Origin: Eledone cirrhosa
Lineage: Eukaryota
Assembly: GCA_964016885.1 (NCBI GenBank)
Contig: OZ024740.1
Location: 301,630,001 to 301,694,000, forward strand
Reading direction: 5' to 3'
Length of the DNA: 64,000 nt
Shown here: in pieces, positions 7,357 to 52,991 of the stretch
Layout: the number at the start of each line of letters is the position of its first letter
Position numbering within the stretch: position 1 is the stretch's first letter
Notes under the pieces: model-generated
Told to the model about the DNA's origin: nothing
What the model saw: the letters and a program-made list of their open reading frames with translations, nothing else
Databases searched by the model: none
Program-made: the position numbers and the translations under genes

Positions 7357-7521
7357 GGCGGTGGATTGGCAGTATCAGAGAGCCGCATGCCATGCTTTGC
7401 AGCATAGAGTTATGGTCCTTTATAATCTGAGTTCAAATCCTGCAGAGGTTAACTTTGTCTTTCATCCTCACGGGGTCGATAAAATAAAGTACCAGTAACG
7501 GGCTGGGGTCGATTAAATCAA
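7357..7521 (+). mobile_element. tRNA-derived SINE (octopus-type family)
   Basis: A-box-like TGGCAGTATCAG, B-box GAGTTCAAATCC, then CTTTCATCCT..GGGGTCGATAAAATAAAGTACCAG. A second copy lies at 60102-60278 (-). Confidence 0.8.
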
Positions 7522-7907: not shown

Positions 7908-8440
7908 ATTGTATATCTACTCCAATAATTTGTTGAGTGCTTTATATCAGTTAGAAAAATATTTTGCTTGTTGTATCCCAACAAATTAAATATAACCTCT
8001 ACATATATATATGTATATAGGCATGTATGCGTATGCATGTATATTACAGCTTTACTTGCATAAATAGGTATATACATTTCTTATCTTATTTTATTTTTAA
8101 CAAATTAACGTTTAATGCTCATATTATCTTGCATTCAACTTACCTTATATTCCTTCAATCCTCCTACTAATTTGAGAATATAAAATGAATAATGCAAGAA
8201 CCTCCATTTCAAACACTTTAAGCCAACAATTCATGACAGGCATGTTTTTCTATGCGCCACGTATTTGCGATTAGAAACTAAACTATATAAATATTTTATT
8301 TCAAGATCAATATTATCATTAAGCTAGTGTATTTATTATGCACAGAAAATAGGGAGACAGAATTTATATTTCGTTTACTTAATTATAATATATTGTAGCA
8401 TGTGAGAAAATGTTCTTAACTTATATTATTATTATTACAG

Positions 8441-10660
8441 TTGCATTTATCTGGCTTTATGTTCATACGAGTTATCACCAAGTCACAACCAGTGACCTCA
8501 AGAGACAACAAGGTCCGCCATGTTCAAGAAAGAACATACATACTCACACATGCATCTTAAGTGTTTAGACTTGTGATGTACTTATATTGACAGAATCTTC
8601 CTTAGTATATGGGCAGTTCCCATTAGTACTATCTTTTGTATTTCTCCTATACGCGGGTTTCCTGGGATTTGCTATAAGTAATCATTAGACCCCTTAGGTA
8701 TCATTCCCAGAGCGCCTACAACCACTGGTATTGTTTTAGTTCTCAATTTCCACATTTTTCCAATTTCTATCTCCAGGTCCTTATGCTTGCTCAATTTTTC
8801 AAATGTTTTTATAGATACATTCTTGTCTATTGGAACAGACATATCAATTAACAGGCATACCCTCTTTTTAAAGTCCTTCAATATTATATCAGGTATATTT
8901 GCATCTATTTTTCGGTCTGTTTGAGTGCTAAAGATCCACAAGATTGAGATGTGATCTTTGTCAAGTATGGAGGGGGTGGATGCTCCCACCAATTCTTTTG
9001 ATGGGGCAGGTCAAAATGCTTACACATTATCCAATGTATGTATTGTGCAGCTCTGTCATGCCTGTTTAGGTATTCGGTTGGAGCTATAGGACTGCACATT
9101 GAAATTATATGGTCGATGGTCTCTGGTTGTTTTTTGCATACACGGCATAATGGGCTGAATTCATTTTTTATTATGTTGGCTTGGTAATTTTTTGTTGGCA
9201 GACACTGATCTTGTGCTGATATAATCAGTCCTTCAGTCTCCGATTTCAGTCCAGAGGATGCCAACCACTGATGGGTTAAAGTTTTGTCAACATCAGGATT
9301 GTTAGCTCGTTCTGGGTATTTTCCATACAGAGGCTTTTCTTGCCATTTCTTAGCCAGTTTCTGTAGCAGTTCTTACTTTGCAGTTACTTTTACCTGCTTT
9401 GCTTTTTCTGTGTTTTCCATTTCAGCAGTAAATGGGACTTCTGAAATGTGTAGTCCATTACTGTATCTTTGTGCATCTTTTGTAATGGAGTATGATCTTT
9501 TGATGCTTTCGTGTTTCAAAACGAGTTTGATCATCCAATCATGTGATTCCCTTAGATATGTAGATAATCCAATTGTTGCAGTTCTCAACGCAATGTCTAA
9601 CTGGATTAACCCACGTCCTCCTTCTTTCCTAGGGAGATATATTCTATCTGTATCTGCCTTAGGGTGATGCATTCTGTGCATGGTTAAGAATTTTCGAATT
9701 TTTGTATCGAGCCTACGGATCTCTGTGCTTGACCAGTTGATGACATTGTAACTGTAGGTTACTACTGGTATGGCAAGCGTGTTTATGGCATCGATCCTAT
9801 TCCTTGCATTCAATTCCGTTCTTAAGATTGCTCTTACTCTGCGGTAACATTCCTTCCTTATCCTTTCCCTCATTGTCGAATGCTTGATTCCGTCTCCTTC
9901 ACAAACACCTAGATATTTGTAAGTTTCCTCTTGATCAAGTTCTCTTATCACATTCCCTCGATCAAGATTAATGTCTGAACTCTTCAGGAGCTTTCCTCTG
10001 GTGAACGTTGCTTTGGCGCATTCATCTAGTCCAAACTCCATTTTAATGTCATCACTGAACTGCTCCGCAGTGGATAATAGCCCTTGCAATTGTTCATCAT
10101 TTTTTGCAAATAGTTTCAGGTCATCCATGTAAAACAAGTGATTAATGGTTTTGTCATAGACTTTATATCCATGTTTTGTTTCATTGATCATTTTACTTAA
10201 TGGTATAAGTGCGATGCAGAATAAAAGCGGTGAAAAATTCCACAATTAATATTAACTTCTCCAGCTTCCAGTGATTTTGTTACATTATTCAAAAGGAGTG
10301 TAGTTTTCCATGTCTTCATACTGAATGACAAAAACCTCCTGACAACGGGGGATATTTTGAAAATCTCTAAACATTTTTCAATCCAACTGTGTGGCAAACT
10401 ATCGAATGCTTTTTTATAATCTATCCAAGCAATTGATAGATGTTTGTGTCTATTACGACAATCTTCCAGTATCATTTTGTTAACCAAAAGCTGATCCTTA
10501 CAGCCATATGAGCCTCGTTTACACCCTTTCTGCTTAATGGGAAATAGGTCATTTGTTATCACGTGGTCATATGTATATTCAGTTAGGACTGATGTTAAAA
10601 TTGTATACATTGTGGTCAAGCAAGTTATCGGTCTGTAATTTTGGGGATTGTTTGTCTCAT
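8441..10660 (-). mobile_element. 5'-truncated R4/Dong-like RLE non-LTR retrotransposon, family A copy 1 (frameshifted/stopped)
   Basis: RT motifs NYRPITCL, IAWIDYKKAFDS, HLFYMDDLKLF, YKYLG; CCHC CRVCKKQPETIDHIISMC; RLE motifs RHD, PDIILKD, LIDMSVP. The 3' end abuts (AAT)n. Confidence 0.93.
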
Positions 10661-10670
10661 AATGAAATCA

Positions 10671-10756
10671 TTCTTCTTCTTCTTCTTCTTCTTCTTCTTC
10701 TTCTTCTTCTTCTTCTTCTTCTTCTTCTTCTTCTTCTTCTTCTTCTTCTTCTTCTT
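10671..10756. repeat. (TTC)n microsatellite separating elements A1 and B1
   Basis: Directly visible, ~29 units. Confidence 0.98.
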
Positions 10757-13036
10757 TTCGGGGGGAAGCGGCGGGCCGGAACTGGGAATGGACTTTAGTG
10801 CCTACCTCGACGGACTGCCGCGGCTCTCGGCCACTGAGGCGGAGTGTTGCGAAAGAAAAGCCGATAACAGCAGCTGAAGTACGGAGTCAATGACTGGCTG
10901 CACAAGGGGTAAATCGCCTGGTTTGGCTGGTCTGCCCTATGAACTTTACGTACATATGCCAGACTTGTTCGGAGGCCTCTTGGCGGACTTTTACTGCAAC
11001 TAGCAACATAACGAGAGAATTCCCAGCTCTGTGAGCTGAGGAGCGGTGGCGCTGCTGAGAAAGGATCCGAACAAGGGGATAACAATTTCAGGCCCATAAC
11101 TCTGATAAACACAGAGTTCATGATTTTGGCCAAGGTGATAGCAAAGAGGTTGGCGCTTGTCGTTGGTGGTCTGGTAGGAGAGTCGCAGACATGCGCCATT
11201 CCAAACAGATCCATTCACAACAACCTGCACCTCATGCGATACATCGTGGATAGGGTAGCTAGGGAACCTGGCACGGGTGTGTCCTTGATTAATTTAGATC
11301 AGTCGAAAGCTTTCAATAGGGTCGACCAGTACTTAGGGCGGCTGACTTTGGGCCCGTCTTCAGAGGCTGGATCTCTGCCATGCCTAGCGACATCTGCTCT
11401 GTCGTGAGAGTGAACGGTCACCTTTCGGAAACCTTCAACATCATGCACTCGGTCCGCCAATGATGTCCTCTCTCGTCCCTCTTGTATGTACTGACCCTCG
11501 AGTCATTACTGCACAAATTGTATACGTTGGGGGCTGGGGTCCCGCACGAACTAGGATGCGGAAGATCCGTGTCGGCATATGAGACGAGGTCACCGTAGTG
11601 GTGTCGAAGGCCAAACACATCGAGTCGATCGGCACCACACTAAGAGAATACGAAGCGGTGACAGGAACAAAGATCAACCAGGAAAAGTCGGTTCCCTCAC
11701 CCAGAAATGGGCAGAGAGGAAGCTATCCCTGAAAGGTCGAGCGGAGATGGCGAATGCGTACACCGCGTCCGTCATCTACTACCGCCTGATCGTCGTGCCT
11801 TGTCCTAAGCCTCGCCTGACTGAACTGGAGCGTTTGCTCTTTCGCTTTTTGTGGAAGGGAGGCGCCCCAATCATCAGGCGGCCCATCTGCTGACAACACA
11901 CGCTACATGGAGCGCTGGGAATGCCGTGGCTGATGATGCACAGACACGCATTCAAGCTACGACATCTCTACCTCTTCCTCGACAGTGATCAGGTTGGTCG
12001 CCGTTTGCTAGACTCGTCTTTCCCCAGCTCGTCTCCTTGACGGAGCTGCAGTCCTGGGCCAATCGAGGACCGAGAGGGAGCGCTTGGAGACTGGAATGTC
12101 TTCAGGCGCTCACGGCCCTCGACGAGTCGGTCAATATGATCGGTGGAAACTCCACCTTGGCGTTCGATAGAGGATTAGTGGACGGTAAGACGACGACATA
12201 CTTGGGGAAACTCTAGGTGTCGACGAAAATCAACTAGACAATCTCTCCGGAAGAACTTTCGGGCCGTGGCCTATGGACAATTTCCAGAAATCCCTGGCCT
12301 GGCAGTGCTACCAAGGAGCTTTGCCAGATCGAGGTAAGCTCTACAGCTGACGAGGTAAGCCGGCAGCCAGGCATGTCCAAGATGCGAGCAGGGCGACGAA
12401 ATCGTCCTGCATGAACTCGTCTAGTATCCGAGCATTGCTGACTTGTGGGTTTATGTCGAATACCTGCTGTCGCGTGTAGAACGGATCCGGCTATCAGCTA
12501 AGTCCATCGTGAGGATTGCTCCGCCCTCTTCCTTTAACCGGGAAGGGCAGGAAGTTTTTTATCTGCCCGGTGGCCATGGCGAAAGAGATAGTATGGTCTG
12601 AAAGGGCTGCAGACAAGTAATTAGCTCTTTGGTGATGCCCTGATTAACCTGTTCAAATTTCATTTGAAAAGGAAAAACAGGGTAGAGTGGGAAGTGCTCT
12701 CTTCCCAGCTTTTTGTTGAAAGATAGGTGAGAGAGGCACGAATGGCCCCAGAGAAAGGACTACTCTGAGTATATGCCTGTAACTTGAAGGTGGAAAACTG
12801 GTAGACGGCACTTGCCCTGGTGGTCAGGGTCGCCGTGACTATTTTTTATGGGCTTTATCCACGATGGCCCTCGGAAGTCCCCCCTTGATAGGGGAATTTT
12901 TCGTTGTTCTTCTTTTGTTACAACCTCTGTTTTTTGTTTTTTTACACGCAGAAATGCCCATTTGTACCGTCCTGTATTGTCCTGTACTGTCCTTAATGTC
13001 TACTTTGTGTAAATGCTTGTGGTTAATAAAGAACGC
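10757..13036 (+). mobile_element. 5'-truncated, degenerate Tx1-like (L1 clade) element B1 (RT to 3' UTR)
   Basis: KSPGLAGLP, ILAKVIAKRL, INLDQSKAFNRV, KWAERKLSLKGR; 3' end TGTGGTTAATAAAGAACGC followed by ATTATTAT. Closest to B4. Confidence 0.92.
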
Positions 13037-13253
13037 ATTATTATCGGTCTGTTCGGACGCTCTTTGCTCGCTCACAGTATGTCGCTTTATTTGCATGTTA
13101 AAATTATTTGTTGTTACATATTTCTGTTTGTGTAAGGGATATAAGCCCTTAGATTTTGCCCTGTGAAAAGGGGAAAGTAAAATATGTGGGCCCTTTGCCC
13201 CAAATATTGGAATATTTTACTTTTAAAAAAAAATTGTTTAGATAAAAAAAAAC

Positions 13254-15217
13254 ATGGCTGAGCCACGTCCCCAGCAATATGTCTGCTGTCGACTGACAAT
13301 GGCGTAAAAGTTGAGAGGACGGTTACAAAGATTGTTACAGCAGACACCACCACAAACAACGTGAACAAAGACAACACTGAGAACATTAATTTTGACACCA
13401 ACTACAACAATAACAACGTCAACCAAAATACAGACAACAGAAAACATTGACAACAAATGCAACAACGATATTAACACCACTAACAAGAAAATAAACAACG
13501 ACAACACCAACAGCAACAATACAAATTGCACCAAAAACAACGACAACGGTGGCACCAAAAACCCAATCAACTAAAATATTGATAACAGCAACAACACCAT
13601 CAACACCGTTTGTAGCAGTAGCAACAGCAACTGCACCAATAAAAAGAGCAGTATCAGCAGTAGCGGCAGCAATAATGGTGCCTCTGAAAAAAAGGGCCAC
13701 ACTTTCGCAGGTGTGGCCCGAAATATAGAGACAGTGCTAGTCACGGATGAGGAGATGGCATTCGTAAGAGCCATGGTGTCGGGAGACGACAACAGAGTTT
13801 CCCTGAAACCTCCACCCGATTTCTTCAAAGACCAGAAACTGTGCACGGTGACTTACCGCGCCGTAAGCAAAATGTCACATCGGGTGGAGAGAGCCACGGA
13901 GGCTCAAATCCGAAAGGCACGCAAAACCCACATCACCCGATCCAGAAAGTGCGCCACAGTAGACGTACTTTTCGTCACCCTCCAAGAGGCAAAGTCTCAC
14001 TCTTTGGAAATCCTAAAGAGTAAGGAGATATTCTTGGTGCCCTTCTAATGCGGGCAGAAAATTGTGAGAGTCAAAGTGATCCAGGTCCCGCCCGACGTGT
14101 CCATACCTTGGCTGGCCGCGTCTGTACTGGCTGGAATCGAGGGGAGGACCACCATACTGCAAGTACAGAGAATGGGAAGAGAGAACTGGTCAGGAATAGG
14201 CAGGAAAATGCTAATACAGACTGACCAGGAGTGCATCGAGGCCATCCCAGACATCATAGACCTCGAAGAAGGGCTCCAACTCCCTATAAGCGTGGAAGGA
14301 AGGCGCCCAAAGTGCTATCTCTGTGGGCAAAAGAGTCACCTCAGGGCCTTCTGCCCGCAGAAGACATCCAAGAAGAGGGCCAGCCTGCTTCCGACGCCTG
14401 ATCCGCTGCTACCGAGAGCAGGGCAGGCAACATAGGCAGAAGGCTCTTCCATGGTGAGCAGGATGGCAACGGCCGTGGCACCCATACCAAGACCACGGAC
14501 AACTAAAGCAGCGGCAGCAGTGGCGCCAACACCAACAGTCGCAGTAGCTACGCCGGCGGTAAAATCGCCAGAGTGGGCTCCACTACCACCACTAACAGCA
14601 GTGGAGCTAATACCCCTGCCGGACGCCGCAGAGTCCGACATGGAGTGTGAGGCGGGAGGGAAGTGGCAAACGGTCTGCAACAAAAGACAAAAAAGAAAAA
14701 AAAACCTTAGCTTCACCCTCCAAAAGCGAAAGCACGCAAATAGGGCTAAAGGCTGCAAGGAGACTTGCAGCAACACCACCACTAGAAGCATCACCAGCAA
14801 CAACAACCACACCACCACCAGCATCACCAAAAACACCATCAACGCAAACACAACAAGACACACACACCCAGCAGCAACAACAAGAAACAACAACAAAATC
14901 GCCCTTGCCCCCAAAAGTTACGCAGCCATAAACATGGCAAATAGAGAACTCCTACAACATATAAAGCATCTACACAGACATCACAGAAAAAAAACTACTA
15001 CACCCCGCCAACACCAAGAACTCTCCCGACAAACATAAGCATCATTGAAATCTCAATAGAACATTACACATTTTTAAAGCAAAAATTCACCAACGCAGTA
15101 GGAGACTCCAGAGGGTCGGTTACCAAGATCATATACACCGACATCCTCTTCGAAACAGCCATGACCAGCCAAAGGAACGGATCTACTGTCCATTCCCCAA
15201 ACGATCAAATTAAGTGA
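13254..15217 (+). pseudogene. B2 ORF1 (Asn/Thr-rich N-terminus, RRM-like region, CCHC knuckle), disrupted
   Basis: CYLCGQKSHLRAFC = CX2CX4HX4C; several stops and frameshifts. Confidence 0.85.
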
Positions 15218-15248
15218 TGCTCTCTCACTTCCCCAGTTCTCATCTAAC

Positions 15249-16417
15249 ATGGCCGTACTTATAGGCAGTATAAATGTACGTGGCCTGGGGTCATCTTGGA
15301 AGCAGGATCACCTGCTCAACGACCTCAGGTCACTAAACATAGATATCGTGGCCTTCAGCGAGACCAGAATCTCCGAGGCACGAGCCTTCGCACCGATCTA
15401 CGGCGGCTACGATGTATACGCATCACCCAGCCGTCCAGGATCGGTGGAGGGGTTGCCCTGCTTTTCAGAGAGGCTTGGATCTCGCGATACGGGCCATCTT
15501 CCTGGACCCAGAAGGTTAGTCGGTGGTGTTGGACATGACCGGCAGCGAAGGCAATGCTTTCAGGCTAGTAGCCGTCTACGCCCCAACAGAGGCAGGACGG
15601 CCAGATTTCTTCAGACGTCTAGAGACCTTTCTTGGAACGTCCCGCTGTTTAGTGTTAGTGGGCGACTGGAACGTTATCTTAGATGCACGCTGGGATTAGA
15701 AGGTTGTAAAAGCCTCAACAAACTGATCAGACGTTTTGAACTCTCAGACATTATACGAATGTGCCAATGTGGGCATGGGCAAACTCCATCGGGTCATCCA
15801 GATCGTATTTAGATAGGGAATTATGTAAGGAAACTTATAAAGCTAGTGAAGGTTGTCCACAATTTAAAGTAGTCGACTACACGGACCGCAAATTTGTGAC
15901 CTGTGAAGTTGACTTAGATAAACCCAATGGGCAAGGACCCGGTTACAGGAAATCGAACACGTTGTTTTCGGTGCGGAAAGCTTACAGATACCGGATTAGC
16001 GAATTAGTTAAGCGTGCGTTGACGGGTGCTATCGTCTATAACATGTGGTGGTTTACCTGAAAAGGGCTATTAGAGTAGAATCGATAAGGTTTAGCAAAGC
16101 AGTAGTGTTAGAGAAATATAGAGTAGAGGGAGAGTTAGATAGAAAGCTAGAAGAGGCGTTTAGGACAGGCATCGCAACCGACGTGCTTGCTCGAGATTGA
16201 TTGCGCGAAAGAGATTGTGTGGTGGACAAGATTGAAAGGGTTGAAGACGGACACTTTCCTCTCCAGCCAATCACTGATTACCTTTTTCAAGTTTCACTTG
16301 AAGAGGAAAATCAGGGTGGAGAGGCAAGTGTTGTCTTCTATTAAGTTTGTTGAAAGGTGGGTGAAAGTGGCGAGTCTGGTCCCAGTGAACGGGCCCGCTC
16401 TGAGTATACGCCTGTAG
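15249..16417 (+). pseudogene. B2 ORF2 remnant (APE endonuclease fused to C-terminus)
   Basis: GSINVRGL, AFSET, SYLDR, YTDRKFV motifs; RT absent. Confidence 0.85.
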
Positions 16418-16921
16418 ACTGAGGAGTGGGAAAAGTGAGAGAGAGCGCTTGCTCTGATGGTAAGGGTGGCCGTGGTCTTTTGTTTGGTTTTCACCACGAG
16501 TCTCCCTCGGAAGTTTCCCCCTTCTTGGGGAATATTTGTTGTTTGAATTGTTTTGGATTTCTAGCCCGATTTTGTTATAACCTGCTTACAGGACCACAAC
16601 CCACTTTGTATCATCATGTACTGTTCTGTGTCGTCTCTAATGTTTTTCTTCGTTTCAGCCCTTGTGGCCAATAAAGAAACCATTATTATTATTATTATTA
16701 TTATTATTGTTGTTGGTGAAGCCACGCTTCTTATCGCCTCCAGTCTTTTTCAACGTTTTACCTCTTTTTCAACCGTTCTAAACCATTTATTCAAGTTTTA
16801 AATTTGATAAAAGTTTAGAAGAAGTGACCCACCTAATACAGGGGTTCACTAGTAAATAATACGACACCCCTTTACGAGGTGTCGTATTTGTGTAAAAATA
16901 TTTTTTTTGAAAAATTTCAAC

Positions 16922-19005
16922 ATGGATAACACAAAGAGAAGAGAGAGCGCTGTCAGACAACACATAGAGAGGGAGAATTTATCAGTTTGTCAACAAGACA
17001 TTGTTCCAGCGGAGGAAAATATAAACGAAAATATTACAAACGAAAAAAAGATTGTTACAGTTTTAAAATTACCAAATATTTCTAAAACAAATAACACCAA
17101 CAATAACATCAACAACATCACCAACAACAACACCAAAAATAACAGCGGTAAAGTCGAGAACGACAATAACAAAAATAACAGCGGTAAGGTCGAGAACGAC
17201 AATAACAAAAATAACAGCGGTAAGGTCGAGAACGACAATAACAAAAATAACAGCGGTAAGGTCGAGAAAGACAATAACAATGACAATAACAACAGCCACA
17301 ACGACAATAATAGTAGGAACAGTATCAACAAAAACAACAATAATAACAACAGCCACAATAATATTAACAGCAGCAACAGTATCAACGAAAACAACACCAA
17401 CAACTGTACCAGCGAAAACAACAACAATGACACCGATACCTGTAATAGCGACCTCAGCATCACCAGTAAGACCAGTAGCGGCAGCAATAGTGGTGCTGCT
17501 GAAAAAGGGACCACTTATTTTGCAGGTGTCGACCGAAATATCGAGACAGTGTTAGTCACAGAGGAGGAGATGGCAGTCGCAAGGGCCATGGTGACAGGGA
17601 GCGCAAATAGAGTTTCCCTGAAACCTCCACCCGATTTTTTCAAGGACCAGCAACTACGGACGTTCACTTGCCGCACCGTAAGCAAAATCTCACATCGAAT
17701 GGAGAGAGCCACGGAGGCTCAAATCCAAAAGGCCTTAGGGTGCGTCTGTGCACGCAAAACCCACAACACCCGAGACATAAAGTACGCCACAGTAGACGTA
17801 CTTTTCGCCATCCCCCAGGAAGCAAAGTCTCACTCTTTGGAAACCCTAAAGAGTGAGGAGTTAGTCTTGGTGCCCTCCTACTGCGGGCAGAAAATTGTTA
17901 GGGTCAAAGTGACCCAAGTCCCACCCGACGGCCCCATACCTTGGCTGGCCGCGTCTGTCCTTGCTGGAATTGAGAACAGGGCGACCATGCTGCAAGTAGA
18001 AAATAGGGAGAGAGAACTGGTCAGGTATAAGCATGCAAATGCTTATACAAACTGACCAGGAATGTATCGAGGCTATCCCCGATATCATAGACTTCGAGGA
18101 AGGACTCCAACTCCCTATAAGTGTAGAAGGAAGACGGCCAAAATGTTATCTCTGTGAGTCGAAAGGTCACCTCAGGGCCTTTTGCCCGCAGAAGACACCG
18201 AAGAGGCCCCTTTCCTTCCAATACCTGGTCCGCTGCTACCAAGAGCAGGACAGGCAACAAACGAAGAAGCCCCTTCCACGGTGAGTAGGAGGGCAACGTC
18301 CGTAGCACCCGTACCAATGCCACGGATAACTAAAGCAGCATCATCAGTAGCGGCAACACCAATAGCTACATTTGAAATAGTTACACCAGCAACACAATTG
18401 CTGAAGAGGGCTCCACTACCACTACCAACAGCCGTGGAGCACATACCCCTCCCAGAGACCACAGAATCCGACATAGAGTTTGAGGCGGGGGTGACGTGGC
18501 AAACAGTATGCCACAAAAAACAAAAAACAAAAAAAAACTCAGATTCACCCTCCAAAAGCGAAGGCATACAAAGAGGGGTAAAGGCAGCAAGGAAACTTGC
18601 AGCAACACCACCACAAACACCAACAACGCAAACACAACAAGACACACACACCAAACAGCAACAAGAAGAAAACGGCAACAAAATCACCCCTCCCCCCCCC
18701 CAAAAAAAATTACACAGCCATAAACATAGCAAAAAAAGAACTCATAAAATATATAAAGCAGCACACAGACATCACGGAAAAAAACTACTACACCCCACCA
18801 ACACCAAGAACTCTCCCGACAAACAAGCATCATCGAAATCTCAATAGAACAATACAAACCTTTAAAACAAAAATTCCCCAGCGCAGTTGGAGACTTCAGA
18901 GGGACGGTTACCAAGAGGATATACAGTGACATCCTCTTGGAAACACCCATGACCAGCGAAAGGGACGGTTCTACTGTCCCTTCACCACACGAACAAGGTA
19001 AGTGA
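16922..19005 (+). pseudogene. B3 ORF1 (gag-like nucleic-acid-binding protein), frameshifted
   Basis: Asn-rich N-terminus, central conserved domain, CYLCESKGHLRAFC knuckle, Pro/Thr-rich linker, conserved C-terminal block. Confidence 0.87.
17135..17278 (+). repeat. 4 x 36-bp in-frame tandem repeat (KNNSGKVENDNN)
   Basis: Units start at 17135, 17171, 17207 and 17243. Confidence 0.95.
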
Positions 19006-19037
19006 CCCTTTCTCATTTGCCCCATTTCTCATCCAAC

Positions 19038-22000: not shown

Positions 22001-22449
22001 TCTACAGGCACGGAAGTGCCGTCAGCCGAGCCTGTCCGAGAGGCGCGCATAGCGACGAAACCGTTGTGCACGCACTCGTTCAGTGCCCGAGCATTGCTGA
22101 CTTGTGGAGCTATGTCGAACAGTTGCTGTCACGTGTGGGACTGATCCGGTTGACGACTGAGTCTATTGTGCAGATGGTCTTGCCGTCTTCCTTTGAGGAG
22201 GAAGGGCAGGCGGTTTTCATCTGCCTGGTGGCTATGGCGAAAGAGATTGTGTGGTGGACAAGGTTAAAAGGATTAAAGACAAACACTTTCCTCTTCGGCG
22301 AATCCCTAATTAACTTTTCCAAGTTTCACTTGAAGAGGAAAATTAGGTTGGAGAGGCAAGTGCTGCTTTCTAGCAAGTTTGTTGAAAGGTGGGTGAATGT
22401 AGCGAGAATGGTCCGAGTGAACGGGACCACTCTGAATATACGACTGTAG
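19038..22449 (+). pseudogene. B3 ORF2: APE endonuclease + reverse transcriptase + zf-RVT-like C-terminus, frameshifted
   Basis: GSINARGL, AISET, LVGDWN, SYLDRV, YTDH; NFRPITLLN, QSKAFD, SVRQGCPLS, HADN (YADD in B4); CPR...ETVVHALVQC. The start ATG seen in B2 and B4 is ATC here. Confidence 0.92.
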
Positions 22450-22748
22450 TTTGAGAGATGGAAAAATAGAGAGAGGGCACTTGCCCTGGTAGTCAAGGTG
22501 GCCGTGGTCTTTTGTGTGGTTTTTGCCACGAGTAACCCTCGGAGGTTTAACCCCTATCGGGGAATTTTTCATTGTTTCAATTTTTATTTTATTGTTTATA
22601 TATACATATGTTTTATGTCTTTTTTCTTTTCTTATATAAATAATAAAAATATTTACACGCACAAAACCCACATCGTACCGTCCTGTTCTTTCTGTGATGT
22701 TTTTCTTGATGTTAGCCCTTGTGGCCAATAAATAAATCATTATTATTA

Positions 22749-22792
<44 letters not shown>

Positions 22793-23008
22793 GGCGACAT
22801 ACGTAGTAAATCGTTTCATCGTCAGCTCCGCAAAGGTTTGTTATTTTCAGTTATTTAAAATTGCCATTTATGGAAAATTTTTATTGTTAATTGTAGATAA
22901 GTGCACATATATTGATTTCTGAAAAGGACACTCAAAAATATTGGGGCCTTGGGGCCGAAATTTAAACTTTTTACAATTATCAAACAAAAATTTTTTCTTT
23001 GAAAAATA

Positions 23009-24981
23009 ATGGATGACTCAGATTCACTTCTTCTTCATAATCCAACACCTCACACCGACTCCACCATTGTAAATATTGCTACGTTTGCCAACACTAGAAT
23101 TGTAAGCAGTAGCAATATTTTTAATTTGTCTCTGGCAGACGTTCATTTCCCGCCATTACCAATGACTGCAGGTGTTAAAGTCGCCACCACTACCACCATC
23201 CCACCGCGACAACCCCCCACCCCCACCCACAACCACCACAGAAACAACAGAAACAAAAGGAAAAAATAAATTAACTTATGATATCGAAATGGATTCAACC
23301 AAAATGAACTCTTCCACACCGAACACCACTGACCCCACCACCACCACAACTGAAACTAAAATTAACAATAGCAAAAATACCGATAATAACACCAGCAACA
23401 ATGAAATTAAGAAAACTACCGTGAGTTTTGCAAGAGTAGCAAAAACGTGCGAAGCGATCCAGGTAACTCAGGAAGAATTAGACGAAGCCAAAGGAATGGT
23501 AAAGAAAGATGGGTACAGGATCAGCCCCCCACCACACACACACACCTAATAAAATGGAGCAACGTCGCCTATGCACCGTGTCTTATTGGACAATAAACAT
23601 AAAATCGCGCCGAGTGGAACGGGCATCTGAGTCCCAAATCCAAAAAGCTTTGGGACATGTTTGGGAAAAAAAAACCCACATCAGACGTGGGCAGAAGTAT
23701 GGGACCGTGGACGTGTTCTTTGAAACACCACAGGAGGCCAGATAGCACTCCATGGCCCCATTAAGAAGTGACGACTTCACACTCATCCCGAGCTATTGTG
23801 GCCAGAGACTTGTGAAGATCAGGGTGACCCACGTTCCACCGGCCATCGAAATTCCCTGGCTAATGGCTGCCGTCCTCTCCGGCATCGAGGCCAACACCAA
23901 AATAATAGAAATAGCAAAAGAAAAGCAGGAGAACTGGTCCGGATCTGGGATGGAGCTCCTAATCCAAGCGGACCATAAAAGCATTGAGGAGATCCCAGAG
24001 GTAATAGACCTCACTAACGGCAGCCACCTCCACGTAATCGTCGAGGGCAGAAGACCTAGGTGTGTCGTTTGTGGTGTAGGAACCCACCTAAGGGCTTTCT
24101 GCCCTCAGGCTAAAAGGTTGAGGCCACTCTCTTACCCACCCCAGTGACTCAACCATCAACGCAACCTGCAGCAGAAATAGCAGCAACAACTGTAGCAGCA
24201 ACAACAGAAGCAACTGTAACAGCAACAACCCCAGCAACAGTAGCAAAACCAACAGCACCACCACCCAACGCCCCGGAATTAACACTAGCGCCTACACCAT
24301 CCACCACGCCACAACCAAAACCAACGCCTGTGGAGGATTTTCCACTCCCCGGCTTATCGCAATTGGAGACAGATTGTGACGACGAGGAGTGGGAAACGGT
24401 ATCAGGAAAAAGGAAAAAAAAAGAAACTAAAAAAGAAAAACTTCTCTTCCTTCCCCATCAAAAAAGAAAATACAGAGGGAAACAAATAAATTATCGAACA
24501 AGAAAGTTAAGACAGATGTATCACCATCCACACCAGCATCACCAACCCCATCACCACAAACACCAACACCATCACCATCATTAACCCCAACACCACCATC
24601 ACCAACACCACACAAGTCACCAAAAAGCGTAACAGAAACAAACCCACAGCAAACGCAAACAAAACAAAACAACCAAATCGATACACACTACACAGCATTA
24701 AATTTGAACAACAAGCAATTATTACACTGCATGCAACACAACACCAGCATCACAGAAAAAAGACTACACAACAACACAAAAGGTCACACCACCTCCACAC
24801 ATACAAATCACTCGCATCACACATAAAACGTACACGACACTAAAACAAAAAATTCCCGAAAGACATCGGAGACTTCCGACAAACACTCTCCAGGAGGATT
24901 TATAAGGACATCCTTCCGGAGGAGGCCACAAGCAGTGAAAAGGATGGACAAAACATCCTTCCTCTACGAGAAGTAAGGTAA
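23009..24981 (+). pseudogene. B4 ORF1, disrupted
   Basis: Homologous to B2/B3 ORF1 (ERASESQIQKALG, YGTVDVFF, IPSYCGQ, VEGRRPRC). Confidence 0.85.
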
Positions 24982-25015
24982 GTGGTATTTCCCATCTTTT
25001 CCACTCCATTTCAAC

Positions 25016-28000
25016 ATGACCTCACTCCGAATAGGCAGCATAAATGCGCGTGGCTTGGGGTCGTCATGGAAGCAGGGCCACTTGCTCAACGACCTCAGGT
25101 CAATAAACATAGATGTAGTGGCCATCAGCGAGACCAGAATCTCCGAAGCACGGGCCTTCGCACCGATCTTCGGCGGCTACGATGTGTTCGCATCTTCCAG
25201 GCGTCCGGGATCGGGGGGAAGGAGTTGCTGTACTTTTTCGGAGAGGTTTGGATCTCGCCTACGGGCCATTTCCTGGACCCAGAAGGTAAGTTGGTGGTGC
25301 TAGACGTGACCAGCGGAGACGAGCAAGCTTTCAGGCTAGTGGCCGTCTATGCCCCGTAGGGAGCAGGGCGGCCTGATTTCTTCCGGCGTCTGGAGAACTT
25401 TCTTGGAACGTCTCGCTCTTTAGTGTTAGTGGGCGACTGGAACGGTATCTTAGATGCACGCTGGGACTGTATGGGATTAGCGGATAGGGGAGGAGGGTGC
25501 AAGAGCCTCACCAACCTGCTCAGGCGTTTTGAACTGTCTGACAGGTACCGATTGGATTTCCCGAATGTGCCAATGTGGACCTGGACAAAACGCATAGGGT
25601 CATCCAGATCATATCTAGATAGAGTATTTTCTAGAGAAATAGATAGGTCTAGCATAGGCTGTCCACAATTCAAGATAGTCAGCTACATGGACCACCAATT
25701 CGTGATCTGTGTACTTGAATTAGATAGGCTTCATAGACGAGGACCCGGCTACTGGAAGCTAAACACGTCCTTACCAGCGCGCAAGACCTACAGAGACCGA
25801 ATTAGCGAACTAGTTAAGCGGGCGTTGACGGGGCCATCGTCAACAACAAATGGTGGTTTGCTCTGAAAAGAGCAATTAGAATAGAGTCCATTAGGTTTAG
25901 TAAGGCTTTAGCAATAGAGAAAAATAGAGCAGAGGGAGAATTAGTTAGAAAATTAGACGAGGTGCTTAGCAAAGGCACCACGACCCACGTTCTTTCCGGC
26001 GAAATTGGTCCTTGACCACCGAGGCGGAGTTTTGTGAAAAGCCGATACAGCCGCTGAAGTACTGGAGGCAATGACTAGCTGCACAAGGGGTAAATCGCCT
26101 GGTTTGGATGGTCTGCCCTGTGAACTTTACGTACATATGCCAGACTTGTTCGCAGGCCTCTTGGCGGACGTCTACTGCAACTGGCAACAGAACGGGAGAA
26201 TTCCCAGCTCTGTGAGCCGAGGAGCTGTGGCGCTGCTGAGAAAGGATCCGAACAAGGGGGATAACGTAGATAATTTTAGGCCCATAACTCTGCTAAACAC
26301 AGAGTTCAAGATTTTGGCCAAGGTGCTAGCAAAGAGGTTGGCGCTTGTCGTTGGTGGTCTGGTGGGAGAGGCACAGACATGCGCCATTCCCGACAGATCC
26401 ATCCACGACAACCTCCACCTCATGCGGTACATCGTAGAGAGGGTAGCTAGGGAACCTGGCGGCAGTCCTGAGGGCGGCTGGCTTTGGGCCCGTCTTCAGA
26501 GGCTGGATCGCTGCCATGCACAGCGACATCTGCTCTGTGGTGAGAGTGAACGGTCACCTTTCGGAACCGTTCAACATCATGCGCTCGGTCCGCCAAGGAT
26601 GTCCCCTCTCGTTTCTCTTGTACGTATTGACTCTTGAGCCATTACTGCACAAACTGGAGACGTTGAGGGGGGTCCCGCGCGAACTAGGATGCGGAAGATC
26701 CGTGTCAGCATATGCGGACGATGTCACCGTAGTGGTGTCGAACGCCAAACACATCGAGGCGATCGTCACTAAACTAAGAGAATACGAAGCGGTGACAGGA
26801 GCAATGATCAACCTCAAAAGTCAGTGGGCCTGCATCTCGGTACCTGGAGAGGCAGGTCCATGCCGTCCAACAGCGTCGTCGGTCGCTGGACGGACGGACC
26901 AGTTAAATTGCTCGGCTCTGGTTCGGTCCGGATCTCCAGACGGACAAAAACTGGGACGAGGTGACGAGCAGGGTGGCTTCTCTCACCCAGAAATGGGCCG
27001 AGAGGAAGCTATTCCCGAAAGGTCGAGCGGAGGTGGCTAATGCATATATCGCGTCCGTCATCTACTACCGCCTGACCGTCGTAACTTGTCTTAAGCCCCG
27101 CCTGACTGCGCTGGAGCGTTTGCTCTTTCGCTTTTTGTGGACGGGATGCTCTCCGATGGTCAGGCGGTCCACTTACTGTCAATACCCGCTATGTGGAGGG
27201 CTGGGAATGCCGTGGCTGATGATGCGTAGACACGCGCTCTGGCTACGACATCTCCACCTCTTCCTCGACGGTGATCAGGTGTGGTCTCCGTTTGCTAGAC
27301 ACGTCTTTCCCCACCTCGTCTCCTTGACGGAGCTGCAGTCCTGGGTCAAGCGAAGACCGAGAGGGAGCGCTTGGAGACTGGAATGTCTTCAGGCGCTCAC
27401 AGCGATCGACCAATCGGGCAATGTGATCGGTGGAAACTCCACCTCGGCGTTCTATAGAGGATTAGTGGAGGGGAAGAGCGACGACGTACTTGGGGAAAGT
27501 CTAGGCGTCGACGAAAATCAACTAGGCAATTTCTTCGGAAGAACTTTCGGGCGGGGCCTATGGACAACTTCCAGAAATCCCTGGCCTGGCAGTGCTACCG
27601 AGGAGCTTTGCGAGTTCGGGATAAACTATACAGGCATTGAGGTGCCGTCAGCCGGACATATCCGAGACGCGCGCAGGGCGACGAAACCGTCCTGAACGAG
27701 CATTGCTGACTTGTGGGTTTATGTCGAACACCTGCTGTCGCGTGTGGGATGGATCCATCTATCAGATGAGTCCATCGTGAGGATTGCCCCGCCCTCTTCC
27801 TTTAGCCAGGAAGGGCAGGCAGTTTTTATCTGTTTGGTGGCCATGGCGAAAGAGATAGTATGGTGGACACGTTTGAAAGGGCTGAAGACGAGCACTTACC
27901 TCATCGGTGATGCCCTGATTAACTTTTTTCAAATTTCATTTGAAAATGAAAGTCAGGTTAGAAAGGGAAGTGCTCTCTTCCCAGCATTTTGTTGAAAGAT

Positions 28001-28059
28001 GTGTGAGAGAGGCAAGAATGGCCCGAGTGAATGGGCCTACTATGAATATGTGTCTGTAA
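25016..28059 (+). pseudogene. B4 ORF2 (APE + RT), disrupted
   Basis: Same motif series as B3 ORF2, with intact YADD. Confidence 0.9.
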
Positions 28060-28340
28060 ATTAAAGGTGGAAAACTGGGAGAGGGAACTTGCCCTGGTGG
28101 TCAGGGTCACTGTGGCTTTTTAATGGGCTTTCTCACCAATGTCCCTCGGAAGTCTCCCCCCTATTGGGGAATTTTTTCATAGTTCTATTATTAGCTCCTC
28201 TGTTTTTTGTTTTTTTTACACGCAGAAATACCCATTTGTACCGTCCTGTATTGTCCTGCACTGTCCTTAATGTCTACTTTATCTAAACCCTTGTGGTTAA
28301 TAAGGAAATCATTATTATGATTATTATTATTATTATTATT

Positions 28341-29401
28341 TGCATTTATCTTGCTTTATGTTTATACGAGTTATCACCAAGTCACAACCAGTGACCTCAA
28401 GAGACAACAAGGTCCGCCATGTTCAAGAAAGAACACACATATTCACACATGCATCCTTAGTGTTTAGACTTGTGATGTACTTATATTGACAGGATCTTCC
28501 TTAGTATATGGGCAGTTCCCATTAGTACTATCTTTTGTATTTCTCCTATACGCGGGTTTCCTGGGGTTTGCGATAAGTAGTCGTTAGATCCCTTAGGTAT
28601 CATTCCCAGAGCGCCTACAACCACTGGTATTGTTTTAGTTCTCAATTTCCACATTTTTCCAATTTCTATCTCCAGGTCCTTATACTTGCTCAATTTTTCA
28701 AATGTTTTTATAGATACATTCTTGTCTATTGGAACAGACATATCAATTAGCAGGCATATCCTCCTTTGAAAGTCCTTCAATATAATATCAGGTCTATTTG
28801 CATCTATTTTTCGGTCTGTTTGGATGCTAAAGTTCCACAAGATTGAGATGTGATCTTTTTCAAGTATGGGAGGTGGTTGATGCTCCCACCAATTCTTTTG
28901 ATGGGGCAGGTCAAAATGCTTACACATTATCCAATGTATGTATTGTGCAGCTCTGTCATGCCTGTTTAGGTATTCGGTTGGAGCTATAGGACTGCACATT
29001 GAAATTATATGGTCAATGGTCTCTGGTTGTTTTTTGCATACACGGCATAATGGGCTGCACCCATTTTTTATTATGTTGGCTTGGTAATTTTTTGTTGGCA
29101 GACACTGATCTTGTGCGGATATAATCAGTCCTTCAGTCTCCGATTTCAGTCCAGAGGATGCCAACCACTGATGGGTTAAAGTTTTGTCAACATCAGGATT
29201 GTTAGCTCGCTCTGGGTATTTTCCATACAGAGGCTTTTCTTGCCATTTCATAGCCAGTTTCTGTAGCAGTTCTTTCTTTGCAGTTACTTTTACCTGCTTT
29301 GCTTTTTCTGTGTTTTCCATTTCAGCAGTAAATGGGACTTCTGAAATTTGTAGTCCATTACTGTATCTTTGTGCATCTCTTGTAATGGAATATGATCTTT
29401 T
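28341..29401 (-). mobile_element. 5'-truncated R4/Dong-like family A copy 2 (CCHC + RLE domain, open frame)
   Basis: Uninterrupted frame to the stop at 28481 with CCHC, RHD, RPD, LIDMSVP, KLSKYKDL; (AAT)n on both sides. Confidence 0.94.
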
Positions 29402-29435
29402 TATTATTATTATTATTATTATTGTTATTGTTATT

Positions 29436-32400
29436 CCTTGAATCTCAGTCATTGATGTTGGTTAACTGGAAAGTCCGTTGGATTGAATATCAAGCCACTA
29501 CCTGCAGCCTCAGATATTCAGGACGTATCGGAGGGTTCTTGCCGTTCCAAGCAAGCATGCCTTTTGAAGCGTTCCAAAAAGCGCGAAGGGGCCGATTTTC
29601 TTTAACCATCCCTGGAAACCTTTGGAGATAGTCCCCAGTGCGCCTATGACAATCGGGATCACTTTGACTTCATGGCAGTTCCAAATCCTTTTCACCTCCC
29701 ACTTTAGGTCCTGGTATCGGTTAATTTTCTCCCTCTCCTTCTCTTGCACTCTCGTGTCGAACGGGCAGGCCACATCCACAATCAGGCACGATCTTTTTTC
29801 TTTGTCCACAACCACCAGGTCAGGTCTATTGTGTTCCAGTTTTTTGTCCGTCTGTATCCTAAAATCCCACAGCACCTTCACCTGACTGTTCTCCATCACC
29901 GACTCTGGCCTATGCTCATACCATTTCTCAGAATGTGGTAGATTGTTTACTTTGCACAGGTGCCAGTGGATCACCCTGCCCATCACATCGTGTCTCCAGC
30001 CCTTATAGTGGGTCTGGGCTAGGTGTTTACACTCGGACACAATGTGAGCCACAGTCTCCTCTCTCTCTCCACAGATCCTGCACAGTGGGCTAGCCTCCTC
30101 CTTGTAGATATGGTGCTTCAACCACTTCGTTTTGAGGGCCTGCTCCTGCGCAGCCATTAGCATTCCTTCTGTAGCCTTTTTGAGGTCTCCTCTTCTCAAC
30201 CAGTTCCATGTCTGTGGATCTCTAAATTCAGTTTTCTCAAAGAAGGTACTATGAAGGGATTTTCCATTAAGGCTGCTCTTCCTCCTTGATGTTATTTCCT
30301 CCTTGGATATCCCCTGGCCTACTGTCCCCTCCTTCAGTACAGCTCTGAGCATTGGCTCCTTACTATAGGTCACGTATTTGTATAGGTTGTTTTTCTCCAT
30401 CTGAACACAGTCCTCTATGCTGATAAGACCTCTTCCACCCTCAGATCTCCTTAGGTAGAGTCTATCGACATCACTCCTCTTGTGGAACATGTTGTAGATA
30501 GTCAATAGCTTCCTAGTCTTCCTATCCATTTCTTTTTGTTCAGCAACATTCCATCTCAGAATTCCCGCACTGTACCTAATAATAGACACAGCTCGGGAAT
30601 TTACTGCGCTTATGGCATTTCTGCTGTTCAGATGTGACTTCAATACGCTCCTTACTCTCCGAATGTATTCAGTTCTTAACAACTCCTTCATTTTTTGTTC
30701 TTTATGCCATCAGCCTCCAGAACGCCCAAATACTTGTATCCTTCCTCAGAGTCAATTTCCTTTATCATCTCACCTGTTGGTATCTGGATCCCGTTACTTC
30801 TGCTCAACCTACCCCTCCTCATCACAATGACTCCACATTTACCAATACCAAACTGCATACATATATCACTGCTGAAAATACGGACAGTGTCAACAAGCAC
30901 ATCCAACTCCTTCTCACTTTTCCCGAAGAGCTTAAGATCGTCCATGAAGAGGAGGTGATTGATGGTAAGCTCTCCCCTTCCCAACTTGTATCCTGCTCTC
31001 ACTTTTCGCAGCATAATGGTCAAGGGCATCAGGGCAAGGACAAACAACAGAGGGGACAGGCTATCTCCCTGGAAGATACCTCTCTTGATCTTCACGCTTC
31101 CCAAGGATACTCCAGTTGATGTCAACTCTGTCTCCCAGGACCCCATACTCCTGCCCAGCAACTGTCTGATGTTATCTGCCACCCTGAAGATCTCCAGGCT
31201 TTTGGTGATCCAGGAATGAGGCACCATGTCAAATGCCTTTCTGTAGTCTATCCATCCCATGGCAAGATCAGTGTGTCTCCTCCTGCAATTCCCCATTACC
31301 ATCTTATCAATAAGCAACTGGTCCTTTGTACCACGTGACTTCTTTCGGCATCCTTTCTGTTCGTCCGGCAACAAGTTGTTTGTGTGGAGGTGATGGTAGA
31401 TTTCCTCAGACACAATGCTCGTCAACAGTTTCCACATTACGGGCAGACATGTGATAGGTCTATAGTTGGTAACATCATTACCCTTGATTCGGTCTTTCAT
31501 TATCAGAACTGTGGTACCTTTTGTCAACCACTCTGGCACCTCACCCGACACCAAGCAGTCATTGAACATGGCCGTCAGCTTCGGGTGGAGGGATGTTAAA
31601 TGTTTAATCCAATACCCCTGCACACCATCTGGGCCTGGTGATTTCCAGTTGGTTAGTTTTTTGGCTTGCCCCTTAAGAGTTTCAACTGTGATACTCAAAT
31701 CAGTCTGTTGCTGTGCCTGCTCACCGATCTCCCTCTGTACTGTCTCAATCCACCCTGCCTGGGCATTGTGTCTAACATCCTGCTCCCATATTCCTCTCCA
31801 GAATGTTTTATCTTCTTCAGCCCCAGGGATCAAGTCGTTGACTCTTTCTTTCCCCTCAAGCTGTCCAAACAGCATCTTCTGGTTGTTGTCGAACATGCGG
31901 TTCTGTTTATACTGACTGACTCTGTTCTCGTATCGCCTGATTTTGGCACTCTTTGCTACAATGCGTTGCTTCAATTCCTCTATGATAATATTTAGCTTTT
32001 TACTCCTAGTTTTGTATTTTATTTCCAGTCTATTTTTAGTGCCTATGTTTTTTAGTGTCCCATTCAGTAGTGACTCAAGCTTTCCTATGTCATTTCTCAT
32101 TTCTTCGATTTGCCCACTCAGTCGCTTCTTCCACCACGGCTCTGCTCTTTCTTGTCTGTTGTTTCCTCTCGCTTTTATACCAAGTAGTTTCCTCACCGTA
32201 TTTGCTGTTGCTTTGAGGATATTGTTGCACTGGTGAAGACTCCTCGCCTCAAGGTATGGGATGACTTTGTTTACCTTAGCTGTTGTTTCTTTTAACTTTT
32301 TCCTGTCTACAAATCTTAGGTTCATAGGTCTCCCACTATCATTGTTCAACTCATCTACCACTAAATTTAGGATGTCAACCGAATCTTGTCCTAGCCCGTC

Positions 32401-32972
32401 AGCATTCATCTCCTCAGTGGCCGTATCTCTGTTCCAGGTATTATTTATCTCAGTATTCAGATCATTGTCTGCTTCGGGTGGTTCCTTCGTTCTCAGGACC
32501 TCCTCACCTTCATTTCCCGTCGGCTCGCTTGTCTGGCATACTACACCCGCCATCTCCAAGCCATTCTCTCTGCTCAGTTCCTCCAGTTCCAGCTCGCTTA
32601 TCCACCCATTAGTTCTTATTACCCGAGCCTGCCCGGCCAATTTTTGTTCATCTAATTTAAATAAACCAATCTCGTTCCAGATGTTATGCATCCGTCTCCT
32701 GTAGCCCCTCTCCTTGGGGTTACTTTTCAGGTAGCATTGCATAACAGTTCTATTCAATTCTTTCGTCCAGTTGGTTCCGGCCCCTTTCCTTCTTCTTCTT
32801 CCTCCAACATCAGCAGTATTTGGTTGACAGTCAGGTTCCTGCTGCTGAGCCAGGGGGCACCTGTTGGGTGAGAGTCTGTCACATGACGTTCTAGTCTTCA
32901 TTTCACCGTTATTCGAACTGTTTATGTTCGATATTTAAACACTCTTATCGAGGATTGGCGAATGTATGTATG
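29436..32972 (-). mobile_element. Apparently full-length R4/Dong-like RLE element, family C
   Basis: Short 5' UTR, single ORF 32901->29510, short 3' UTR; (AAT)n on both sides. Confidence 0.95.
29510..32901 (-). CDS. Family C polyprotein (~1130 aa: N-terminal domain, RT, CCHC, RLE) with a single frameshift at ~30690
   Basis: ORFs 30688-32901 and 29510-30691 abut. WTKELNRTVMQCY..GYRRRMHNIW N-terminus; NWKSPGPDG, GIFQGDSLSP, HLLFMDDLKLF; CRICGEREETVAHIVSEC; RHD, RPD, IVDVACP, KINRYQDL. Confidence 0.88.
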
Positions 32973-32988
32973 TATTATTATTATTATT

Positions 32989-33705
32989 TGCATTTATCTT
33001 GCTTTATGTTTATACGAGTTATCACCAAGTCACAACCAGTGACCTCAAGAGACAACAAGGTCCGCCATGTTCAAGAAAGAACACACATATTCACACATGC
33101 ATCCTTAGTGTTTAGACTTGTGATGTACTTATATTGACAGGATCTTCCTTAGTATATGGGCAGTTCCCATTAGTACTATCTTTTGTATTTCTCCTATACG
33201 CGGGTTTCCTGGGATTTGCGATAAGTAGTCGTTAGACCCCTTAGGTATCATTCCCAGAGCGCCTACAACCACTGGTATTGTTTTAGTTCTCAATTTCCAC
33301 ATTTTTCCAATTTCTATCTCCAGGTCCTTATACTTGCTCAAATTTTCAAATGTTTTTATAGATACATTCTTGTCTATTGGAACAGACATATCAATTAGCA
33401 GGCATACCCTCCTTTGAAAGTCCTTCAATATTATATCAGGTCTATTTGCATCTATTTTTCGGTCTGTTTGGATGCTAAAGTTCCACAAGATTGAGATGTG
33501 ATCAAGTATGGGAGGTGGTTGATGCTCCCACCAATTCTTTTGATAGGGCAGGTCAAAATGCTTACACATTATCCAATGTATGTATTGTGCAGCTCTGTCA
33601 TGCCTGTTTAGGTATTCGGTTGGAGCTATAGGACTGCACATTGAAATTATATGGTCAATGGTCTCTGGTTGTTTTTTGCATACACGGCATAATGGGCTGC
33701 ACCCA

Positions 33706-33712
<7 letters not shown>
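32989..33712 (-). mobile_element. 5'-truncated R4/Dong-like family A copy 3
   Basis: Nearly identical to the 3' part of copy A2, same 3' terminus; followed by (ATT)n 33710-33790. Confidence 0.94.
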
Positions 33713-33782
<70 letters not shown>

Positions 33783-33799
33783 CATTATTGTTAGTATTA

Positions 33800-34040
33800 T
33801 TCGCCCATTTATTCATGAGACAGAGGTCGGCGCAGAGTCCTCAAACACTCAATCCTGTGGTGCCTGTTGGAAGCAACCATCTCCAACTTATCCAGCTGGC
33901 CGGCCTAGTGAGACCATTCAAACTCATGTATGTTATCCAAAAATCATAATCGCGGTCTACCACTGGATCTCCTCCCGGTTCATTTTATTCATAAAATTGC
34001 TATCCTGTTTCTTTCCTTACATATTCTAACTAATGTCAGT
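33800..34040 (-). mobile_element. Degenerate RTE-like LINE 3' end
   Basis: Minus translation GRRSSGRPRL..FLDNI...LEMVASNR; the 3' end faces the (AAT)n tract; similar to the 41052-41500 element. Confidence 0.55.
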
Positions 34041-41052: not shown

Positions 41053-41053
<1 letters not shown>

Positions 41054-41500
41054 TACTTATTCCTGAGAGGGCTGTGGGGGCTGCGTCTTCAAACACTCTT
41101 TCCATCAGACACTGTCAGAAGCAACCATTTTCAAATGATTCGTCTGGATCCCCAAGCCTAACAAGCCAAGTTCAGGGATGTTTTCCAGCCTTCATGCTCT
41201 GGGTCTACCCCTGGGTCTCCTGGTTGTTGGCTTTGGCCGTAAAATCTGTCCAACGATCCTTTACTAAGACATTCTAGCCCTATGGCCATCGTCTCGAAGC
41301 TGGGATATCTCAATTCGGAGAATACGCTGCTCTAAATTAAGTGATACTCTGATCTTCAACATACGCACTTAATCAAGTAACGTTAGACCATAGAAACCCC
41401 CATTTCGGCCGCTTGAATTCATGATCATAATATTTCGGTTATTTCCCAAGCTTCAAGACCGTAGGTAATAGTTGGTAAGAAGATTGGTATTGAAGATTAC
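41053..41500 (-). mobile_element. 5'-truncated degenerate RTE LINE 3' end
   Basis: Minus translation IFLPTITYGLEAW...IQAAEMGFL...RRPRGRPR. Confidence 0.8.
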
Positions 41501-43748: not shown

Positions 43749-44091
43749 AATTCAGGCTGTTTGTTTACAAACGAACAAACCGAGCATTATAATAAATGTT
43801 CGGTAAACTGATACGTGCATATATATATATATGTGTGCCTGTATGTATATATATACATGCTACTGTACGTCTGTATACATATATGTATGTACGTATACAT
43901 ACATACTTACATTTAAGTAAGTGCCGTACTAAGAGTGAGAAATAAAATTTCGTTTCATTCTATTCCATTTATCGTTTTCGGTGCGCCTGGCCGACTGAAC
44001 TCACTCGATATGCAAATTAGGCTGCTCAGCCGTTAATTTTCATAAGGAAAGTATATACTTTCGGACGTTCAACCATCTGGCAGAAAGGTAT

Positions 44092-52990: not shown

Positions 52991-52991
52991 T

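Follow-up and report, generated by a model that had tools for sequence, protein, structure and literature searches.

The closest described systems are retrotransposons without long terminal repeats (non-LTR elements) that insert into defined targets, and the statements that follow rest on the parts of the published accounts drawn on here. Dong elements target a TAA microsatellite, also in the snail Biomphalaria (PMC3812793), with TAA repeats lying upstream of their 5' end and, in Bombyx mori Dong, a demonstrated hepatitis delta virus (HDV)-like ribozyme at that end (PMC3774820). Microsatellite families are known in the Tx1 group as well, including Kibi in (TC)n and Koshi in (TTC)n (PMC3812793) and crocodilian families in (TTCC)n/(TTTC)n (PMC4494074). 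Keno (Tx1, apurinic/apyrimidinic endonuclease, APE) and Utopia (restriction-like endonuclease, RLE) converged on one site in the gene for U2 small nuclear RNA (PMC4640811), SART and TRAS insert in opposite orientations in the telomeric repeats of Bombyx (PMC10088271), and the crocodilian short interspersed element (SINE) SINEU shares the target preference of its Tx1 partner Tx1-Mar (PMC4494074). In Octopus vulgaris, Dong-R4 and L1-Tx1 elements are reported as recently active and hotspots of transposable elements are left unexplained (PMC13282606; further related literature: PMC8967140, PMC3747384, PMC4824008, PMC5753468). Here, a 64,000-nt stretch of the genome of the octopus Eledone cirrhosa (contig OZ024740.1, positions 301,630,001 to 301,694,000; "the window", to which all plain coordinates refer) was analyzed for an array of long interspersed elements (LINEs) joined by an ATT repeat.

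The array (8436-33711) consists of four L1-group LINEs with an APE (family B, plus strand) and four R2-group LINEs with an RLE (families A and C, minus strand) in the order A1(-), (TTC)28, B1-B4(+), A2(-), C(-), A3(-), with (ATT)n and once (TTC)28 at the joints, and it is one of many such arrays in the genome. Shared targeting of this repeat with opposite polarity is real, genome-wide and well supported. Very probably, judging from the sequences, B and A/C share (ATT)n/(AAT)n in opposite orientation through target-primed reverse transcription that likely starts from opposite strands, and polarized arrays grow from it stepwise. The features are as follows:

8421-8435: 3' tail of A1, (AAT)n
8436-10670, minus strand: A1, 5'-truncated R2-group LINE, Dong/R4-like, with reverse transcriptase (RT), CCHC and RLE
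10671-10754, plus strand: (TTC)28 separating A1 and B1 at their 5' ends, a CTT variant on the ATT strand
10755-13036, plus strand: B1, 5'-truncated L1-group LINE with an internal deletion of ~150 bp and the tail ATTATTAT
13045-16681, plus strand: B2, L1-group LINE with ORF1 and APE, ~2.2 kb spanning the RT deleted
16682-16713, plus strand: (ATT)9 GTTGTT, spacer between B2 and B3
16714-22738, plus strand: B3, full-length, decayed L1-group LINE (ORF1, APE, RT, zf-RVT)
22739-22792, plus strand: ATT tract between B3 and B4, (ATT)4 TT (TTA)13, ~18 units
22793-28310, plus strand: B4, full-length L1-group LINE with two internal deletions
28311-28339, plus strand: ATT tract at the tail-to-tail junction of B4 and A2
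28340-29402, minus strand: A2, 5'-truncated A copy (RLE part)
29403-29435, plus strand: (ATT)7 GTTATTGTTATT, tail of C and 5' flank of A2
~29436-32969, minus strand: C, second Dong/R4-like family, near-whole open reading frame (ORF) with a frameshift, without ~1 kb of the 5' untranslated region (UTR)
32970-32987, plus strand: (TAT)5, spacer between C and A3
32988-33711, minus strand: A3, the shortest A copy
33712-33801, plus strand: (ATT)23 and degenerate units
33809-34066, minus strand: D, old element remnant with an AAT tail, kin to 41053-41500

The array was read from the sequence, from self-BLAST and from annotation against full-length natural copies, all of which bear out the claim of the initial annotation that eight elements abut with only simple repeat between them. 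ATT follows the sense strand of 4/4 B elements and AAT that of 4/4 A/C elements, just as had been described for the copies then called Tx1-like and R4/Dong-like. The accompanying claim that no element is nested in another holds inside the array but fails elsewhere, where a SINE lies inside B, A or C and where B, A and C lie inside the 3' UTR of an RTE-like family. The tail of B1 is shorter than three ATT units, and internal deletions affect B1, B2 and B4. A1, A2 and A3 are separate insertions, since their truncation points differ (2686, 3861 and 4191 of 4928), and C begins near 1018 of 4564. The best identity to another sampled copy is 97.7% for A1, 89% for B1, 82-85% for B2, 95-97% for B3, 93-95% for B4, 99% for A2 and up to 99.7% for C. 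D, on the strand of A and C just beyond the last ATT tract, is a ninth and far older remnant (65-72% identity to its relatives).

Family B carries ORF1 and an ORF2 with APE (PF03372), RT and a C-terminal zinc knuckle (zf-RVT). Its APE and RT are nearest to human L1 among the solved structures (143 bits versus 67 for R2), the references for this comparison being those present in the PDB, R2 and L1. The ORF1 product resembles CCHC and ZCCHC3-RBD clusters (Atlas, 0.91-0.93), with no zf-CCHC match in Pfam; an ORF1 with an RNA-binding domain and CCHC is Tx1-like and unlike that of mammalian L1. Among named proteins, the one nearest to B comes from Argonauta hians (66%). A and C each have a single ORF (1216 and 1130 amino acids in intact natural copies) with RVT_1, CCHC and a PD..D..K motif (RHD replaces RPD in the L122 copy), and a Pfam search found no APE match (Exo_endo_phos) in them. 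C is nearest to R2 (105 versus 50 bits), with a weak alignment to the R2 RLE. Based on architecture and target rather than on a reference tree, B likely belongs to the Tx1 clade and A and C likely to the R4/Dong clade; named clade references were absent among the homologues and cluster members. An HDV-like ribozyme was not found at the A/C 5' ends (no Rfam match, and a negative result with our own descriptor, which lacked a positive control).

The A and C proteins are 36% identical, and ~380 nt of the 5' end is common to both families at 78%. Eight loci (L250, L252, L253, L255, L256, L257, L119 and L131) combine an A-type 5' UTR with a C body or the reverse, and 5' ends appear to be swapped between the two Dong-like families. 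At the 5' junctions of full-length A/C copies (L267; L256, L184) the first bases of the element are repeated in short form, interleaved with AAT units, which suggests that template switching took place repeatedly and added repeat. At least four different 5' ends are found on B bodies, each in phase after ATT (L289, L245, window 13045, 16714 and 22793), and internal deletions are frequent among B copies.

For the junctions, the 3.0-Gb genome was searched with element ends stripped of repeat, and 80 stretches of 9.9 kb around the matches were taken. Classification was automatic and based on index copies (58 B, 62 A and 29 C, of which 46, 36 and 18 had a resolved 5' junction); a junction was called in-repeat if at least three units lay within 10 nt. 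Loci of the window itself, junctions that fell outside the edges of a locus (B 12/58, A 26/62, C 11/29) and three segmental duplicates (L124/L102, L103, L129/L117) were left out, and a tally over all high-scoring segment pairs was set aside on account of noise from old fragments and internal breaks. The 5' junction lies in ATT in 35 out of 46 B copies (27/28 full-length, 8/18 truncated) and in AAT in 45 out of 54 A/C copies (10/11 full-length, and 35/43 truncated at many different points). Separately, AAT was found for 29/36 A, with GAA at a further 3/36, and for 16/18 C. A repeat on the wrong strand was seen at 0/100 of these junctions. In 40 arbitrary stretches of 9.9 kb, with 131,200 positions sampled, at least three units within 10 nt upstream occur at a frequency of 0.094% for ATT and 0.10% for AAT. 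The 3' junctions lie in repeat in 53/58 B, 47/47 resolved A and 28/29 C copies, and an ATT tract precedes all 30 matches to the 5' end of B4, the window's own included.

The RTE-like family served as a control, with TA/TATG at 8/11 resolved 5' junctions and ATT/AAT at 0/11 (read by eye). Its 3' UTR holds ATT tracts, which in the majority of copies are empty. One copy contains a 5.2-kb B4 within such a tract, with RTE sequence continuing on both sides, and others hold A or C reversed in the 3' UTR, and therefore the repeat pre-exists the insertion: ATT is a target and not just a tail. The RTE-like LINEs are young (98-99% identity between copies; 54280-55440 in the window, L328-L357), encode C2H2 fingers at the C-terminus, are flanked by TA/TATG at both ends and probably represent a third microsatellite-targeting family with another repeat.

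Polarity was counted over 466 unique tracts, each read along its ATT strand; neighbors are included, and the counts are of ends rather than of independent copies. The sense strand reads ATT for 197/200 B ends and 58/61 SINE ends and AAT for 351/357 A/C ends. Among index-copy junctions, B and A/C neighbors are in opposite orientation in 39/39 cases, A/C neighbors share their orientation in 23/23 and B neighbors in 15/16. Within 20 nt of ATT tracts, CTT runs occur 14 times on the ATT strand and AAG runs 0 times; the (TTC)28 of the array has probably drifted from a part of the same ATT tract. Head-to-head B/C junctions that lack a tract, often with both partners truncated (L239, L294, L077, L249), are possibly deletions that followed insertion. 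A second small array in the window (56047-57187: C fragment, 75-nt B 3' end, (ATT)6(GTT)n, decayed C on the minus strand) has the polarity of the main array at its tract.

Another LINE lies within 130 nt of 54 out of 65 copies (29/38 B, 25/27 A/C), and LINE neighbors were found on 78/130 sides versus 2/11 tracts in arbitrary stretches (Fisher p=0.01). The median tract length is 6 units without a LINE beside the tract, 9.5 with one and 11 with two, which fits a preference for long tracts and lengthening by insertion alike. The window copies diverge by 0.3-18% from their nearest sampled relatives (B1 and B2 were not searched directly), a spread consistent with stepwise accretion in which B arrived earlier and A/C later. 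At its left junction and right flank, the array agrees with read contigs that probably derive from the sample used for the assembly. Three RAD-seq (restriction-site-associated DNA sequencing) runs showed no alternative junction, the unique flanks lying outside their coverage, and no relatives with flanks were found in metagenome contigs. At the termini sampled here, neither pattern that the initial annotation had named as refuting appeared, the 5' flanks and the orientations both being non-random, and its picture of a growing "landing pad" holds in outline.

Several points weigh against this interpretation. Among the truncated B copies, 10/18 lack at least three ATT units in the 5' flank, a weaker association than that of A/C (p=0.006), and part of the 5' tract of full-length copies could arrive with the element. 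The flanks examined, in which pure repeats would mask a target duplication, showed no clear one for B, A or C; the L331/L358 site has no spacer between two RTE tracts, but the spacer is missing in the empty copy L345 too, and the site therefore yields no duplication length. Reversed ends exist (3/200 B, 6/357 A/C), among them a 31-nt B end in the RTE tract of L352. As to sampling, the index copies are top-scoring matches, mostly on the largest contigs, rather than random copies, 6 of the 20 B4 stretches were picked because both ends were known, and the clustering background comprised only 11 tracts. Finally, no alternative junction that would represent an empty allele appeared in reads from three runs of a single sample, probably that of the assembly.

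Target-primed reverse transcription is established for non-LTR elements. A sense strand that reads ATT at both ends implies priming from the AAT strand, and one that reads AAT implies priming from the ATT strand. The RNA of B, with AUU repeats at its end, would thus use a nicked AAT strand as primer, and that of A/C, with terminal UAA repeats, a nicked ATT strand. Every insertion would leave repeat on both sides, by target duplication and a templated tail, and later copies of either kind would meet a tract beside earlier ones, building polarized arrays one insertion at a time. The same polarity would result whether the endonuclease chooses the strand or the repeat tail of the RNA pairs with the strand that was nicked, and strand and target might be set mainly by such annealing, with endonucleases that are loosely specific for AT-rich DNA and no convergence on opposite strands. 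The tail of each family does equal its flank, SINE insertions are found at single ATTA sites that lack long tracts and truncated B copies are less strict, but A/C have long 5' tracts as well (in most truncated copies), which pairing of the tail alone does not need, and the literature, in the part drawn on, credits the endonuclease mainly with non-LTR target choice (PMC4494074). Control by the tail is a live but somewhat doubtful possibility, and it refines the two-strand priming model rather than replacing it. The initial annotation had further proposed that two unrelated endonuclease classes converged on opposite strands of the microsatellite; only the B lineage can be called convergent, because TAA targeting is an old Dong trait, and a choice of opposite strands by the endonucleases themselves is one of two candidate causes of the polarity.

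The frequent contact of B with other LINEs, together with the habit of Tx1 families of targeting other transposons (Tx1L, Tx1-Mar, in the accounts drawn on), could mean that B targets the ends of other elements and that ATT is incidental. This is improbable given that the neighbors of B are varied (A/C with many truncation points, tails of B and of the SINE, and an internal RTE tract), that unique DNA lies beside 9/38 B copies and that ATT is the sole sequence common to all. The most skeptical reading, in which ATT and AAT are merely tails and the arrays stem from tandem duplication, recombination or assembly error, is contradicted by the 5' junction counts. A few loci are indeed segmental duplicates (L123/L124, L128/L129), but the copies belong to different families and vary in truncation point and divergence, isolated truncated copies carry 5' tracts and the read contigs agree with the assembly at the left junction and right flank, which makes this explanation highly improbable.

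The SINE (184 bp, L046:1298-1481; 7357-7498 and 60102-60277 in the window) makes up ~2.4% of the sampled bases and follows the strand of B at ATT tracts. Its 3' junctions start with ATTA in 103 out of 115 cases, and a duplication that is not pure repeat is visible in 58/115, mostly of 10-21 bp and starting with ATTA. Local alignment of one SINE copy gave no significant 3' similarity to B (p 0.09-0.34). A post hoc end-anchored test of the last 30 nt of 105 SINE copies, devised after the likeness had been noticed, was significant for B3b and B2 (0/400 shuffles each), with p=0.0125 for B4 and p=0.07 for B1, and not significant for the A, C, D and RTE-like ends. A tRNA search of the SINE locus with ARAGORN was negative. 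One SINE insertion occupies the identical site inside four B4 copies (L228, L243, L246, L247) and was therefore carried along by a B4 source copy. The SINE, with its B-like 3' end, likely uses the machinery of B on looser ATTA sites; if B does move the SINE, the core site is short (ATTA) and the preference of B for long tracts needs a further cause.

Elsewhere, the window contains a GIY-YIG fragment (52541-52993, minus strand; weak Pfam match) that is probably from a Penelope-like element, a 448-bp tandem repeat of 2.4 copies (43757-44808) and a direct duplication of ~700 bp (49887-51278).

Overall, this is sequence-specific retrotransposition of a known sort and not a new kind of system, and each ingredient has precedent. 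In the published literature searched, as far as its accounts were available and with Repbase (which may list such a family) outside the search, neither a Tx1-type family that targets ATT nor dispersed, polarized, mixed Dong/Tx1 arrays were found. The locus extends the microsatellite targets of APE-type elements by a new one, provides a natural paired test on one simple substrate of the roles of endonuclease and RNA-tail pairing in target and strand choice, gives a concrete account of how LINE insertions could come to cluster in octopus-type genomes and makes B a candidate partner LINE for an abundant SINE. A broader picture, tentative and rather unlikely to hold in full, is a self-renewing commons in which several Tx1-type subfamilies, two Dong families and the SINE would live on one repeat, regenerated and lengthened by every insertion, the APE lineage having evolved strand-specific cleavage opposite to that of the RLE lineage. 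If true, it would explain some of the hotspots of transposable elements and of the ATT microsatellites in octopod genomes and make a Tx1-type LINE the motor of a major octopus SINE.

Compared with the known systems, again as far as the accounts were available, A and C resemble Dong (R4 clade; Bombyx, Anopheles and Biomphalaria) in the TAA target and in a single ORF with RT and RLE, and they show its (TAA)n insertion at 45/54 5' and 75/76 resolved 3' junctions; unlike Dong, two families take part here in mixed arrays with an APE element. B shares with Kibi, Koshi and the crocodilian Tx1 families the L1-group APE architecture, insertion into a microsatellite and, putatively, the CCHC knuckle of ORF1, but its target is (ATT)n and is common to an RLE family. 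The SINE and B have a common target preference, as do SINEU and Tx1-Mar, but here the likeness to B extends to the last 30 nt of the SINE (by the post hoc test). The part of the Octopus vulgaris account drawn on gives no targets, polarity or arrays for its Dong-R4 and L1-Tx1 elements (PMC13282606). SART and TRAS likewise place two families in one repeat, in opposite orientation and in arrays, but both are APE elements of the R1 clade at chromosome ends, whereas the families here differ in endonuclease class and occupy interstitial sites. Keno and Utopia are APE and RLE elements that evolved one target in parallel, and B and A/C likewise have one target; that of Keno and Utopia is a gene site with identical 3' flanks, hence the same orientation, whereas the target here is a dispersed repeat that survives insertion and is entered in opposite orientations.

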